A DNA stretch of 64,000 nucleotides from Eledone cirrhosa (lineage: Eukaryota), in NCBI GenBank assembly GCA_964016885.1, contig OZ024749.1:6944001-7008000 (forward strand). The letters are read 5' to 3'. The position numbers were made by a program, and so were the translations under genes. This document shows positions 499 through 61,009 of the stretch, piece by piece; position 1 is the first letter of the stretch; each line of letters opens with the position of its first letter. The notes below the pieces were generated by a model. It saw nothing but the letters and a program-made list of their open reading frames with translations, did not search any database and was not told the origin of the DNA.

Positions 499-505
<7 letters not shown>

Positions 506-725
506 ATTAAAAAAATAATGAATAAAACAATGAAACAGTTCCTTATATTAAACAAAAAAAGTTCATTATTTAACGATCGTTTCTAGGACATATATGTGTT
601 AGAATTGGCATAATGCCAATTCTAACACATATATGTCCTAGAAACGATCGTTAAATAATGAACTTTTTTTGTTTAATATAAGGAACTGTTTCATTGTTTT
701 ATTCATTATTTTTTTAATACTTTAT
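499..725. repeat. Perfect palindrome, ~113 bp arms, 1-nt spacer at 612
   Basis: Arms compared by eye: ataaagtatt...gaattggcat A atgccaattc...aatactttat. Confidence 0.95.
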
Positions 726-1206
726 CTTGACTCTGTATTCCGTTTATCTTTCACCGAAAGTGATTTTGAATGCATCTCTTCTTTCCATGATATCCGGATT
801 ACATTGAGTTCTTCATACGGATTGGACACTACCGTAAACTCTTGGTAGATTTATCTACATATATATATATATATATATAAATAGAGAGAGAGAGAGATCT
901 ATAATTTGTTGTGCTCAATTGAACATAGATTTTATTGTTTTAGCCTTGAGTGTATATTTCATTAGTCACACCTTCAACTTGCATTTCATTAGATTATATA
1001 CATACGCACATACACAAAAATATACATATATATTATATATATAATATACATAACATATATATTAAATATATATTATTCATATAACATATATATCAAATAT
1101 ATATAACATATATATTAAATATATATATTATATAGTATATATATATAACATATATATTAAATACATATAACACACATACACATATATACATATATATATA
1201 TATATA

Positions 1207-8611: not shown

Positions 8612-11043
8612 TCATCATCATCATCATCATCAGGTTTAGCGTCCGTGTTCCACGCTTGCATGGGTTTGGACGGGGGTTTTCCCACTTGAGGCAAGAGTGG
8701 TTGTCTTGCTCGCATAGGACTGTCTGGCGGGTTTTCTACAGTTGGATGCCCTTCCTAACACCAACCACATTTACAGTGTGGGGCTGGGAGGTTTTTACCG
8801 TGTTGCCTACACGGCCACATTACAGCGTGGACTGTCTGGCGGGTTTTCTACAGCTGGATGCCCTTCCTAACACCAACCACATTTACAGTGTGGGGCTGGG
8901 AGGTTTTTACCGTGTTGCCTACACGGCCACATTTACAGCGTGGACTGTGTGTTTTTTGTCGTGACACCTACACGATCTCATTTGTTTCGGCCTGGATGTT
9001 GTGGGACCAACATAACTTTACATTGAAAGGGGCGGTGTGGGTGGGGTGGAGGTGGTGGGACGGGGGTGTGTTTTGATAGAGATGCCTACTGACTGTAGTA
9101 GGTTTTTACTTTGTATTTAGGTAAGGCGGGTCTTCTCTATTACTGAGTACCGCCAAAGGTCTCGGTCCAGTGACATTGTCTTGGAGAGGTGTAAGCGTGT
9201 GAGGTCGGAATTTATCAGCTCGTCCCATGTTTTTCTGGGTCTGCCTACTCCGTGGCTACCGTCTATCTTTATTGCCCTGCACTTCGTTATACAGCTGTCG
9301 TCTTTCATGCGCATCACGTGACCGTACCAACGTAGCCTTCTCTCGAGTAAACAACATCTGATCCCTCTTATTTCTAATTTTTTCCTTAGTTCGTTTATGC
9401 TTTGCCGTTCACGTATATTACTATTGCACATCCAGCGGAGCATGCAAGCTTCGTTCCTCTCTAGTCTGCGTATATCCTCTGCACACAATGCCCAGGTCTC
9501 ACTGCCATGCAGCATTGCTGTTCGTATGCAGGCATCGTATAACCTGCCTTTCATTTTTAGGGAGAACCCTCTAGCGGCTAATAGTGGTATAAGCTCTCTG
9601 AACTTTTTCCATCCAGTTCTGACTCTAGCTACTGTACTTTCAGAGCACCCTCCCCCACTGCTGATTTTGTCACCCAGATAACGGAAGCTGTCCACTATTT
9701 CTATAGACCCCTCTGCGCAGTTGAAGGAGCTAGTATTTTGTGGGCACTTGCTGCTACTTATTGCACCAGAGCACCGGCCACATGTAAAATCTATGTTCTT
9801 AGTTAGCTTACCTGTGATCCCACTACATCTTTTATGCACCCATACTTTGCATTTGGGACATAAAATGGAGTTTCTACCTACGCCTTTCCTACACACTGAG
9901 CATGGCCATTTCCCCGATGGGACCGCCGCCTTATTTTCTTTCCTACAAACTAGAACTTTAGTCTTAGCCAGGTTAATTTTAAGGCCTTTTGATTCTAGGC
10001 CGTGCTTCCACGTTTGGAATTTCTTCTCTAGTTCGGTCATTGATTCAGCTATGAGCGTTAGATCATCTGCGTATAGGAGTTCCCATGGGCAGCCGGTCTT
10101 GAACTCCTCTGTTATAGCCTGGAGGGCAATAATAAATAGTAGGGGGCTAAGAACAGAGCCCTGATGGACACCAACTTTTACGCTAAACTCTTCACTATAT
10201 TCGTTGTTAATTCTAACCTTACTGACTATTTCTTTATACATGGCTTGTATAGCTCTCACAAGCCATTCGTCAACACCTAGTTTTCTAAGAGACCACCAGA
10301 TAATGGAACGGGGGACTCTGTCGAAGGCTTTCTCCAAGTCGACGAAAGCTAAGTATAGGGGTTTACTTTTAGCTAGGTACTTCTCCTGTAGTTGTCGTAC
10401 AATGAAAAGAGCGTCTGTGGTACTTTTGCCTGACACAAACCCGAACTGCATTTCATCTAGATCAATTCTCTCTCTGATTAGTTGCGCTATTACTTTTTCC
10501 GTGACCTTCATGACCTGGTCGATTAATTTAATGCCTCTATAGTTACTCTTATCTAGGGCATCTCCTTTTCCCTTATAGCAGTTAACGATGATGCTGCTAT
10601 GCCATTCCTTCGGAACAACCCCATTCTGTACGACTTGGTTAACTATCCGGGTGACCATGGTGTGTCCCACCGAACCAGATGCCTTCAGCATCTCAGCAAC
10701 TATTTCCGAAGGCCCAGCCGCCTTACCCGTCTTCATATCTTTGATTGCCTTACTTATTATACTACCTTCAACTAACACTGCTGGTCCCTCTATTGGATCG
10801 ATCTGGGGGAGACTGTCTTTCTCCCATTTGTTCTCCTCATTTAGAAGCCTTTCGTAGTGACACTTCCAAGCTACCTTCTTATCAGCGTCGGTGATGGCAA
10901 GTATGCCATCATCGTTAAGTACACACTTCTCCCCGACAATATCACGGTTTTCCTTGACACATTGCCTGGCAATCCTGAACACCTCACGTTGTAGAACATG
11001 CTTGAACTTTCTTTCCTCTGCTTCCCTTCTTGCGAAGTACACT
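8608..11043 (-). mobile_element. RTE-clade LINE, 5'-truncated, uninterrupted RT ORF (9117-~11040) with PHD-like insert
   Basis: [60 protein letters not shown]; (GAT)n tail; ~112-bp tandem duplication in the 3'UTR; both ends abut (TA)n. Confidence 0.97.
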
Positions 11044-20116: not shown

Positions 20117-20572
20117 ATCATCATCATCATCATCATCATCATCACCGTTTTACAGCCATTCTTCCATGCTAACATGGGTTAGACGGGTTGTCCTGTTGTG
20201 GGCAGTGTCTGGTTGGCTGACCTTGTCTTGCTCATACAGGAACTGATTCTGGCTTGATTTCTACAGCTGGATGCTCTTCCTAACACCAACCTCATTTACA
20301 GTGAGTGCTAGGTGCTTTTTTATCCATGGCGCCTACACGTCCACTTTACAGTGTGGCCTGGGTGCTTTTATTTTTTTGCTGTGGCACCTCCACGACCACT
20401 TTGGAGTGGAATGATAGGGACCCCAGCCCCTATCATCTCATTTCTACAGCTGAGTAAACTGGAGCAATGTGAAATAAAGTGTCTTGCTCAAGGAAACAAC
20501 ACATCACCTGGTCCGAGAATTGAACTCACAACCGTTCGATTGCAAGCCGAATGCTCTAACCACTAAGCCATG
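20117..20572 (-). mobile_element. SINE family A with longer RTE-type tail
   Basis: Head at 20440-20572, tail like 13000-13240, (CAT)n on plus strand. Confidence 0.88.
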
Positions 20573-20837: not shown

Positions 20838-20926
20838 AATGGTCGTTTTGGAACCTCTATAATGCAGATGGCTAAATCTTCGGAGATTTACTCGTCTGCA
20901 TTGTAGAGGATTCCAAAACAACCATT
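20838..20926. repeat. Imperfect palindrome, ~42-bp arms
   Basis: aatggtcgttttggaacctctataatgcaga...tctgcattgtagaggattccaaaacaaccatt. Confidence 0.88.
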
Positions 20927-20934
20927 TTTCATAC

Positions 20935-21100
20935 TCCACAATGCTTCAAACGAACTTAAATATTCTCTTAAAACAAAGTAAAATATTTCAACATGATATT
21001 TCAGGGGTAATATCCTCTTTTCAAATGTGGAGCTGAAACGGAAAACAAATTGAATGATTGATGTGTTCTTCCTTAACTGGCCTATGTGTCTGTAATACAC
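20935..21100 (-). CDS. Candidate host-gene exon (VYYRHIGQLR...EYLSSFEALW)
   Basis: Acceptor acttcacacag, donor gtatga, 166 nt, phase 0 to 1, open frame. Confidence 0.45.
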
Positions 21101-27522: not shown

Positions 27523-29700
27523 AAGAGAATAAATAAGGAGAATAAATGGGAGAAAGACAGTCTCCCCCATATCGACCCAATAGAGGGACCAGCAGTGTTA
27601 GTCGAGGGGAGTATAATAAGTAAGGCAATCAAGGATATGAAGACGGGTAAGGCGGCTGGGCCTTCGGAAATAGTTGCTGAGATGCTGAAGGCATCTGGCA
27701 CGGTGGGACACACCATGGTCACCCTCATAGTTAACCAAGTCGTACAGAATGGGGTTGTTCCGAAGGACTGGCATAGCAGCATCATCGTTAACTGTTATAA
27801 GGGTAAAGGAGACGCCCTAGATAGGAGTAACTATAGAGGCATTAAATTAATCGATCAGGTCATGAAGGTCACGGAAAAAGTAATAGCGCAACTAATCACA
27901 GAGAGAATTGACCTAGATGAAATGCAGTTCAGGTTTGTGTCAGGCAAAAGTACCACAGACGCTCTTTTCATAGTACGACAACTACAGGAGAAGTACCTAG
28001 CTAAAGGTAAACCCCTCTACTTAGCTTTTGTCGACTTGGAGAAAGCCTTCGACAGAGTCCCCCGCTCCATTATCTGGTGGGCTCTTAGAAAACTAGGCGT
28101 TGACGAATGGCTTGTGAGGGCTATACAAGCCATGTATAAAGAAACAGTCAGCAAGGTTAGAATTAACAACGAATATAGTGAAGAGTTTAGCGTAAAAGTT
28201 GGCGTCCATCAGGGCTCTGTTCTCAGCCCCCTACTATTTATTATTGCCCTTCAGGCTATAACAGAGGAGTTCAAGACAGGCTGCCCATGGGAACTCCTAT
28301 ACGCAGACGACCTGACACTCATAGCGGAATCAATGGCCGAGCTAGAGAAGAAATTCCAAACATGGAAGCACGGCCTAGAGTCAAAAGGACTTAAAATTAA
28401 CCTGGCTAAGACCAAAGTTCTAGTTTGTAGGAAAGAAAACAAGGCGGCGGTCCCTTCTGGGAAATAGTCGTGCTCGGTGTGTAGGAAAGGCGTAGGTAGA
28501 AACTCCATTTTATGTCCTAAATGCAAAGTATGGGTGCATAAAAGATGTAGTGGGATCACAGGTAAGCTAACTAAGAACATAGATTTTACATGTGGCCGGT
28601 GTTCTGGTGCAATAAGTAGCAGCAAGTGCCCACAAAATACTAGCTCTTTCAATTGCGCAGAGGGTTCTATAGAAATAGTGGACAGCTTCCGTTACCTGGG
28701 CGATAAAATCAGCAGTGGGGGAGGGTGCTCTGAAAGTACAGTAGCTAGAGTCAGAACTGGTTGGAAAAAGTTCAGAGAGCTTATACCACTATTAGCTGCT
28801 AAAGGGTTCTCCCTCAAAATGAAAGGCAGGTTGTACGATGCCTGCATACGAACAGCAATGTTGCATGGCAGTGAGACCTGGGCATTGTGTGCAGAGGATA
28901 TACGCAGACAAGAGAGGAACGAAGCTTGCATGCTCCGCTGGATGTGTAACAGTAATATACGTGAACGGCAAAGCATAAACGAACTAAGGAAAAAATTAGA
29001 GATAAGAGGGATCAGATGTTGTTTACTCGAGAGAAGGCTACGTTGATATGGACACGTGATGCGCATGAAAGTCGATAGCTGTATAACAAAGTGCAGGGCA
29101 ATAAAGATAGACGGTATCCACGGAATAGGCAGACCTAGAAAAACCTGGGACGAGCTGATAAACTCCGACCTCACACACTTACACCTCTCCAAGACAATGT
29201 CACTGGACCGAGACCTTTGGCGGTACTCAGTAACAGAGAAGACCCGCCTTACCACCGAGACCTTTGGCGGTACTCAGTAACAGAGAAGACCCACCTTACC
29301 TAAATATATAGTAAAACCTACTCCAGCCAGTAGGCATCTCTAACAAAATACACCCCGTCCCACCACCACCACCCCCACCCCATCCACACCACCCCGTTCT
29401 ATGTAAAGTTATGTTGGTGCCGCACCATCGAGGCCGAAACAAATGAGATCGTGTAGGTGTCACGACAAAAAACCCGCCAGACAGTCCACGCTGTAATGTG
29501 GCCGTGTAGGCAACACGGTAAAAACCTCCCAGACCCACATTGTAAATGTGGTTGGTGTTAGGAAGGGCATCCAACTGTAGAAAACCTGCCAGACAGTCCT
29601 ATGCGAGCAAGACAATCACTCTTGCCTCAAGTGGGACTACCCCCGTCCAAACCCATGCAAGCGTGGAACACGGACGTTAGAGGTTGATGATGATGATGAT
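27523..29700 (+). mobile_element. RTE-clade LINE (same subfamily as 8608-11043), 5'-truncated
   Basis: Near-identical protein; Trp-to-stop at 28465 and 29044; ~45-bp duplication at 29209-29300; (GAT)n tail. Confidence 0.97.
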
Positions 29701-38211: not shown

Positions 38212-38406
38212 AAACGAAGGAGGTGTGGTAAGGAACTAGATGGACCATAATGCACCAGAGTACTCAATACTTAGGGTAATAGAGTGGGTAATAGGAAAAA
38301 GTTTAACCCCGATGGCAGACCTCAAGCTGTTTTGACGGCTATTTTTAGACTGAAATAGCCGTCGAAACGGCTTGAGCTCTGCTGTCGGGGTTAAACGTTT
38401 TCCTAT
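38211..38406 (-). mobile_element. Second copy of the fold-back element at 1207-1440
   Basis: Same tail and arms, shorter apex. Confidence 0.85.
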
Positions 38407-59685: not shown

Positions 59686-60976
59686 TCATCATCATCATCA
59701 TCAACGTTTAACGTCCGTGTTCCACGCTTGCATGGGTTTGGACGGGGGTAGTCCCACTTGAGGCAAGAGTGATTGTCTTGCTCGCATAGGACTGTCTGGC
59801 AGGTTTTCTACAGTTGGATGCCCTTCCTAACACCAACCACATTTACAGTGTGGGTCTGGGAGGTTTTTACCGTGTTGCCTACACGGCCACATTACAGCGT
59901 GGACTGTGTGTTTTTTTGTCGTGACACCTACACGATCTCATTTGTTTCGGCCCGGATGGCGCGGCACCAACATAACTTTACATAGGACGGGGTGGTGTGG
60001 ATGGGGTGGGGGTGGTGGTGGTGGGACGGGGTGTATTTTGTTAGAGATGCCTACTGGCAAGGCGGGTCTTCTCTGTTACTGAGTACCGCCAAAGGTCTCG
60101 GTCCAGTGACATTGTCTTGGAGAGGTGTAAGTGTGTGAGGTCGGAGTTTATCAGCTCGTCTCAGGTTTTTCTAGGTCTGCCTATTCCGTGGCTACCGTCT
60201 ATCTTTATTGCCCTGCACTTTGTTATACAGCTATCGACTTTCATGCGCATCACGTGTCCATACCAACGTAGCCTTCTCTCGAGTAAACAACATCTGATCC
60301 CTCTTATCTCTAATTTTTTCCTTAGTTCGTTTATGCTTTGCCGTTCACGTATATTACTGTTACACATCCAGCGGAGCATGCAAGCTTCGTTCCTCTCTAG
60401 TCTGCGTATATCCTCTGCACACAATGCCCAGGTCTCACTGCCATGCAACATTGCTGTTCGTATGCAGGCATCGTACAACCTGCCTTTCATTTTTAGGGAG
60501 AACCCTTTAGCAGCTAATAGTGGTATAAGCTCTCTGAACTTTTTCCAACCAGTTCTGACTCTAGCTACAGTACTTTCAGAGCACCCTCCCCCACTGCTGA
60601 TTTTATCGCCCAGGTAACGGAAGCTGTTCACTATTTCTATAGAACCCTCTGCGCAATTGAAAGAGCTAGTATTGTGTGGGCACTTGCTGCTACTTATTGC
60701 ACCAGAACACCGGCCACATGTAAAATCTATGTTCTTAGTTAGCTTACCTGTGATCCCACTACATCTTTTATGCACCCATACTTTGCATTTAGGACACAAA
60801 ATGGAGTTTCTACCTACGCCTTTCCTACACACCGAGCACGACCATTTCCCAGAAGGGACCGCCGCCTTGTTTTCTTTCCTACAAACTAGAACTTTGGTCT
60901 TAGCCAGGTTAATTTTAAGTCCTTTTGACTCTAGGCCGTGCTTCCATGTTTGGAATTTCTTCTCTAGCTCGGCCAT
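59683..60976 (-). mobile_element. RTE LINE (subfamily of 27523-29700), heavily 5'-truncated
   Basis: ORF 60161-60976 nearly identical; (CAT)n tail on plus strand; (TA)n on both sides. Confidence 0.96.

Positions 60977-61009
<33 letters not shown>

Follow-up and report, generated by a model that had tools for sequence, protein, structure and literature searches.

Penelope-like elements of the Hydra clade are, as described by Craig et al. (2021, PMC8557442), defined by RW(K/R) and DKT motifs, a CxCX5C linker, CxxC and CxH motifs, a C-terminal endonuclease and a (TA)n target; they are generally shorter than 3 kb, a tendency rather than a strict criterion, and have tails of 30 - 40 nt. One member, Hydra-1_Obim, combines a reverse transcriptase (RT) followed by an endonuclease with a type I hammerhead ribozyme near its 3' end. 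In the available literature the origin of the inverted repeats and tails of Penelope-like elements is treated as unsettled, the standing proposal being self-priming on an antisense template. This account was given for Pen2a_Av of Adineta vaga (Arkhipova et al. 2013, PMC3846280), which shows a head-to-head inverted arm without a tail, palindromes at junctions and an initiator-like motif in its pLTR. In vitro, a protein of the Poseidon element of Anolis (Frangieh et al. 2024, PMC11167929) nicks each strand of AT-rich DNA and extends it, two internal RNA start sites bound the tail, and the product shortens with the RNA 5' end; the accessible portions of that paper report no start-site difference between strands and draw no link to inverted copies or capped run-off. 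In L1 twin priming the second strand primes internally, and complete 5' ends bear an extra G, a mark of cap copying (PMC11702581). Type I hammerheads with a palindromic loop III and a U3-A8 variant have been reported in the pLTRs of Penelope-like elements (PMC4209133) and in non-LTR retrozymes (bioRxiv 10.64898/2026.07.22.740005); pairs of hammerheads on opposite strands, 100 - 700 bp apart, are noted there and left unexplained in the text available. Octopus repeat annotation includes active Penelope-like families, and its accessible text mentions neither palindromes nor hammerheads (PMC13282606).

We analyzed a window of 64,000 nucleotides from Eledone cirrhosa (contig OZ024749.1), in which an earlier note had recorded a perfect palindrome of 227 bp. 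A palindrome scan confirmed it at 499-725, with two arms of 113 bp, a 1-nt centre at 612 and 0 mismatches; by arithmetic, a perfect arm of 113 bp is beyond chance. Palindrome scan and BLAST identify 499-611 (- strand) as an inverted arm holding an element, here called family 1, from an inner site at -135 to approximately -247. It meets, at a single head-to-head junction base (612) that comparison with the parent places within loop II of the parental hammerhead, the mirrored portion of a direct arm (613-725, + strand), which carries a hammerhead 3' half. A tail present on one arm only (726-858, + strand; 134 nt in the reference copy) continues to the fixed 3' end of the element. Family-1 coordinates count back from this end, with -1 at window position 858 and -135 at window position 725. 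The element, formerly taken to extend to 860, ends at 858, and 859-879 is (TA)n microsatellite, as is the left target flank (476-498); such flanks would hide any target-site duplication. The two flanks are not mirrored. We conclude that, with good probability, a young Penelope-like element of the Hydra clade inserted twice at 499-858, head-to-head and with its 5' part missing, and that twin priming likely formed this double insertion. Just to its left, positions ~170-225 and ~425-475 appear by eye to be mutual inverted repeats around another dispersed element.

Sequence of the right arm plus tail recurs many times in the genome at 99 - 100% identity (40 of 335 candidates scored), and a 31-nt pattern from the family-1 tail has 4,930 exact matches in the genome, compared to 0 for the reversed control. 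The family-1 unit comprises 6,023 nt, including a microsatellite-rich 3' region of approx. 3.4 kb. Near-full-length copies carry a direct 5' pLTR and a single frame encoding an RT and then a GIY-YIG-like endonuclease, as read at loci L039 (one internal stop) and L050 (a deletion and a frameshift); pLTRs are formed by partial tandems, with 8 internal pLTR-to-5'UTR junctions. The suggestion that reverse transcription was involved in making the palindrome is borne out. Pfam and PDB searches with the family-1 protein returned nothing significant; its C-terminal part is close to GIY-YIG-labelled Atlas clusters (cosine 0.96 - 0.97). RWR, DKT, CxCX5C, CRLC and CNH motifs were recognized by eye in the frame, with the endonuclease C-terminal. 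Compared by eye with the published rows, these motifs, together with (TA)n flanks that recur across family-1 copies, fit a placement of family 1 in the Hydra clade. Naiad was considered first, from an N-terminal likeness, and dropped, as the endonuclease is C-terminal.

The likeness to Hydra-1_Obim (PMC8557442) extends from the order of RT and endonuclease, the motifs and the (TA)n target to the ribozyme: both ribozymes are of type I, lie close to the 3' end, share the first core box and have a U where cleavage occurs. Compared to the Hydra clade as described there, the element is longer (approx. 6.0 kb), the tails are longer (134 and 77 nt in two families), stem-loop II of the ribozyme reaches approx. 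110 nt and thousands of young copies are present, the proteins having been compared by eye only. The architecture, the clade and its ribozymes are already published. The earlier note had regarded the path from ribozyme element to genomic palindrome as undescribed; however, both inverted pLTRs that bear a tail and palindromes at junctions have been described, and self-priming has been proposed as their source (PMC3846280, PMC8557442). In the open literature searched, with subscription papers outside its scope, we found no report of cap-G run-off, twin priming or strand-specific starts in Penelope-like elements.

Short copies of this kind look like MITEs, microRNA hairpins or fold-back artefacts, and annotations may wrongly list them as such. 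We rejected a MITE, as junctions vary between copies and short copies form no lineage of their own, and also a self-propagating SINE-like lineage, as stopped and long copies are intermixed on a tree (17 changes compared to a shuffled mean of 17.5; 55 direct arms, regex labels, low divergence and a rough bootstrap). This mixing indicates that short copies are remade from the same masters.

As previously noted, the right arm contains a hammerhead 3' half, which is of type I. By its sequence, this half consists, on the + strand, of the stem II 3' strand (~617-638), the second core box (641-644), a mini stem III with a palindromic loop between that box and the cleavage triplet (650-652), and the stem I 3' strand (653-662). 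No complete hammerhead was found in the window with Rfam or a hand-made descriptor. The arms of the window copy are equal in length, and both stopped inside loop II, approx. 100 nt short of the proposed transcription start (+1), for which reason this copy lacks the first core box. Parents with a stem I 5' strand and a first core box had been predicted and were found, the canonical C3-G8 box being present in 53 of 54 family-1 read-through copies. The parental ribozyme (approx. 154 nt, counting the long stem-loop II) has both core boxes, the cleavage triplet and three stems, and its predicted minimum free energy fold is a three-way junction (-42.8 kcal/mol). The earlier note saw the CTGANGA-bearing half as overwritten by a mirror image; the parental stem II 5' strand is not a mirror of the 3' strand, and the window copy simply lacks the first ~105 nt. 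The G10.1-C11.1 pair that usually closes stem II does not adjoin the core in family 1 and by eye is present in family 2; Hydra ribozymes in the supplement rows of PMC8557442 likewise have no such pair adjoining the core.

The outer ends of the two arms were assessed in 90 of the first 100 tail matches on one contig, picked by exact pattern. In this sample, 73 direct arms match < 422 nt of the reference. For 13 of these arms the cause is subfamily divergence alone; the 13 apparent ends at -392 are not truncations, and the rate for -366 to -421 was not used. An adjacent inverted arm occurs in 41 of the 73 short copies, with its outer end exactly at -135 in 34 and between -133 and -141 in 38. Genome-wide, -135 ends adjoining TA are about as frequent as read-throughs into the tail (1,637 and 1,459 pattern matches, respectively; approx. 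1:1). Among 30 loci chosen by a -135 end, 17 have an adjacent tail-bearing partner and 1 a distant one, 7 run out of the locus, 5 stand alone and 0 have a visible -135 partner. The two arms thus use different fixed outer ends (-1 and -135). Exceptions to this asymmetry are rare; at loci L120 and L140 each arm carries a complete tail.

The inner ends vary separately in the two arms. The inverted arm is > 15 nt longer than the direct arm in 14 of the 41 pairs and shorter in 1, and there is no overlap in 7; inner ends are equal within 15 nt in 26 pairs, 5 of which end away from the stop site described below, one of these being centred on the palindromic stem III. Junctions often bear short non-templated additions. 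Arm divergence is approx. 8-fold lower within copies (0.4%) than between copies (3.0%; 14 pairs), and 8 of the 14 pairs show no substitution. The perfection of the window copy is thus explained by its being a young insertion, and the correction process that the earlier note had invoked for it is not needed. Two donor RNAs per insertion were considered and rejected, as only 1 of 10 within-copy substitutions lies at a family-variant site.

The ends of family-1 arms concentrate at a stop site in the stem I 5' strand. The end rate per arm-nt is 0.032 at -335 to -365 (59 per 1,862), approx. 25-fold above the background of 0.0011 found in the stem II 3' strand and loop II (10 per 9,073); it is 0.0015 in the tail and 0.0012 at the predicted cleavage site (2 per 1,656), where there is no surplus of DNA ends. 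Cleaved RNA as the template was rejected on the latter ground, and under the best explanation the ribozyme is a bystander in palindrome formation. Thirty-three of the 41 inverted arms end at -338 to -359. Genome-wide, the match to the template breaks off immediately 5' of the A at -348 in 1,730 of 5,887 arms (29%), compared to 340 of 6,227 (5.5%) one base further in. At the position 5' of this A, 4,157 arms keep the template C, 428 carry G and 1,302 carry A or T; one base further in, these numbers are 5,887 for the template base, 29 for G and 311 for C or T. G thus accounts for 25% of the stops at the first position (428/1,730) and for 8.5% at the second (29/340; P ~ 1 × 10-12, Fisher's test). 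In the family-1 sample, 2 - 3 of the 10 G cases could derive from the partner arm. The A at -348, like the A at -138 of family 2 (see below), sits in what we take to be an initiator-like motif. Minor groups of ends were also observed: 10 of the 73 short direct arms end at -33 to -61 in the tail, near a small hairpin seen by eye, possibly a second pause, and four arm ends in the 90-copy sample lie at -246 to -256, near the window junction and a short self-complementary stretch in loop II.

The same layout had been reported in unrelated sequence at 1207, 20838 and 38290. The geometry does recur at all three sites, but BLAST shows the sites at 1207 and 38290 to be copies of one second family, and no hammerhead layout was seen in the 20838 hairpin. 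The palindrome scan recovered 1207-1361 (75 bp, 2 mismatches) and 38291-38406 (54 bp, 6 mismatches), with the 20838 hairpin under its threshold. The first family-2 insertion (1207-1438, + strand) is head-to-head, with an inverted arm at 1207-1281, a direct arm at 1287-1438 and a 77-nt tail, and both of its arms end approx. 15 nt beyond the family-2 stop site; the second (38213-38406, - strand) has the opposite orientation and is older. Family 2 has 8,045 pattern matches in the genome, and its partial frames, with an RT core and linker, are of Hydra type. Its hammerhead has a stem III exceeding N4 and, in 18 of 21 read-through copies (e.g., L202:8687-8809), a U3-A8 core swap, which has been reported before in Schistosoma elements; the hammerhead fold is predicted only with the core held open (-29.7 versus -31.6 kcal/mol).

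In a sample of 76 of the first 100 family-2 matches, of which 73 were parsed, an adjacent inverted arm was present in 59 of 69 short copies, with its outer end at -78 in 41. Of these 59 inverted arms, 11 are longer than the direct arm by > 15 nt, 4 are without overlap and 5 are shorter, and 49 end at -127 to -145. Eight of the nine arms that end exactly at the A of -138 carry a G, where the position was scored as A or G only; a G also follows 4 of the 15 arms that are one base shorter. Read-through is common in family 1 but was seen in only 4 of the 73 family-2 copies. Two families thus share a stop with an excess of G, and since it lies in stem I in family 1 but in loop II in family 2, its position is independent of ribozyme structure. 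The location of the putative family-2 +1 inside loop II makes most family-2 copies look like a hammerhead whose first half has been replaced.

A mechanism for these insertions has to account for the element involved, for two fixed outer ends and separately varying arm lengths, and for the stop site with its extra G. Each nicked target strand likely primed its own cDNA of a sense RNA. In the model that we favor and consider probable, the GIY-YIG domain would nick both strands of (TA)n. One of the resulting 3' ends would prime at the distal RNA site (-1) and the other at the inner site (-135), the tail being the distance between them. Both cDNAs would run toward the RNA 5' end, often falling off at the capped +1, where the cap would be copied as an extra base, and the two cDNA ends would be united by end-joining with small additions or microhomology. 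In Penelope, the promoter is located inside the pLTR (PMC2377424). The reading of the stop as run-off at a capped transcription start is drawn from the DNA ends and from an initiator consensus. A broader version, to which we give about even chances of being correct, is that Penelope-like elements integrate by asymmetric twin priming of this kind, with a dimer nicking both target strands. The two cDNAs, begun at two different fixed sites close to the capped 5' end of a sense mRNA, would correspond to LTR-like strong-stop DNA, and its abortive joining would spread palindromes through the genome. On this version, transcription from the putative start inside the pLTR hammerhead would disable the 5' ribozyme and leave the 3' one whole: RNA started at +1 is predicted to be without the core in family 2 and, in family 1, to be refolded with a stem I of 7 instead of 10 bp. 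Of 8 internal 5' pLTRs, 7 continue beyond +1 and 0 stop at it; one linear capped RNA is thus insufficient for long copies. [quoted passage not shown]

Compared with the described systems, these insertions show several differences. For Pen2a_Av the published account is self-priming on an antisense template (PMC3846280), whereas here non-overlapping arms and the extra G favor two primings on a sense capped RNA. The proposal extends the in vitro finding for Poseidon, whose strands start alike in the available account (PMC11167929); here the two arms use different sites. In L1 the second site varies and adjoins the first cDNA end (PMC11702581), while here it is fixed and near the first, and this is why the arms overlap as a palindrome, L1 duplicating little. 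Unlike non-LTR retrozymes (bioRxiv 10.64898/2026.07.22.740005), the copies are not tandem retrozymes. These comparisons bear on the question, raised above, of how inverted repeats and tails arise: with two young families and thousands of copies, base-level footprints (i.e., strand-specific starts, non-overlapping arms and a cap-like G) separate the models and name exact bases, making the copying mechanism testable.

The most direct rival to two primings is fold-back self-priming, in which one cDNA folds and is copied back, with the -135 end set by endonuclease resolution. Self-priming has been proposed for Pen2a_Av (PMC3846280), and the 26 of 41 pairs with equal inner ends, including the 5 away from the stop site and the one centred on stem III, are what it would produce; the near-identity of arms within copies is as it would expect too, although this fits copying of one RNA equally well. 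Yet in 14 of 41 pairs the inverted arm holds sequence that the direct arm lacks, and 7 pairs share none; fold-back cannot have made arms with sequence absent from the partner. The frequent non-templated additions at junctions also speak against it, and the surplus of G at +1 argues for a capped template of sense polarity; self-priming as published requires antisense RNA. Fold-back is thus contradicted as a general rule, unless later deletions explain the 14-to-1 asymmetry, and we consider it unlikely; it may hold for a minority of copies, including the one at 499-858. The earlier note put forward a narrower variant, in which fold-back or correction by template switching made the quasi-palindromic hammerhead fully palindromic, with stem II at the centre. 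Loop II does contain the junction of the window copy and most of those in family 2, but family-1 arm ends occur there and across the stem II 3' strand at the background rate, the family-2 hot spot coincides with the initiator-like A and the extra G, and the left arm is a copy of the downstream element out to -135, far beyond the ribozyme, rather than a corrected stem II 5' strand. Together with the 14 inverted arms that exceed their partners, these observations leave correction about stem II very improbable.

Two further readings concern the stop site and the data themselves. Twin priming could be true and the stop could nevertheless be an RT pause, a splice boundary or a processing site rather than a capped start. 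In D. virilis the end of an intron falls at the 5' border of helix I (PMC4209133), which is also where the family-1 stop lies, and the free passage of internal 5' pLTRs through the site is in keeping with such a reading. A pause, however, would not add G at just a single base; what follows the stop is variable sequence and not a fixed upstream exon; and the stop sits in different ribozyme elements in the two families. We judge this possibility improbable. An assembly or chimeric-read artefact, which had been named as a possible refutation of the palindrome, would agree with the absence of the 612 junction from the short-read contigs examined, in which no listed piece spans the stretch. At the family level it does not apply, as the same geometry with fixed ends occurs in thousands of loci; in addition, flanks are unmirrored, older copies have diverged arms, and contigs of short-read runs X1 and X3, which may be from the source sample, show head-to-head-type joints, those of X3 including the 725 end followed by (TA)n. 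Almost no weight can be given to an artefact. Asymmetric twin priming on a capped sense RNA accordingly remains the reading that we prefer.

The older, imperfect hairpin with a tail at 20838-20970 (+ strand), approx. 85% identical to its relatives, represents a third family. Together with loci L291-L302, it shows head-to-head copies flanked by (TA)n, with two fixed ends that by eye are separated by approx. 41 nt. In 12 loci, nothing within 1.5 kb matched the family-1 protein, and no frame or ribozyme was found. Family 3 is likely another Penelope-like family.

Other repeats in the window were also noted. A small second head-to-head family-1 fragment lies at 1534-1630 between (TA)n runs (inverted -300 to -259, direct -277 to -226); both of its outer ends are non-canonical, and it was possibly trimmed by slippage into the adjoining repeats. 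Long dispersed inverted repeats, unrelated to families 1 and 2 by BLAST, pair 9120-10843 with 27530-29253 (95% complementary) and 28332-29254 with 60055-60977 (99%). A tRNA-like Rfam match at 20513-20570 (- strand) falls inside a likely tRNA-derived SINE.
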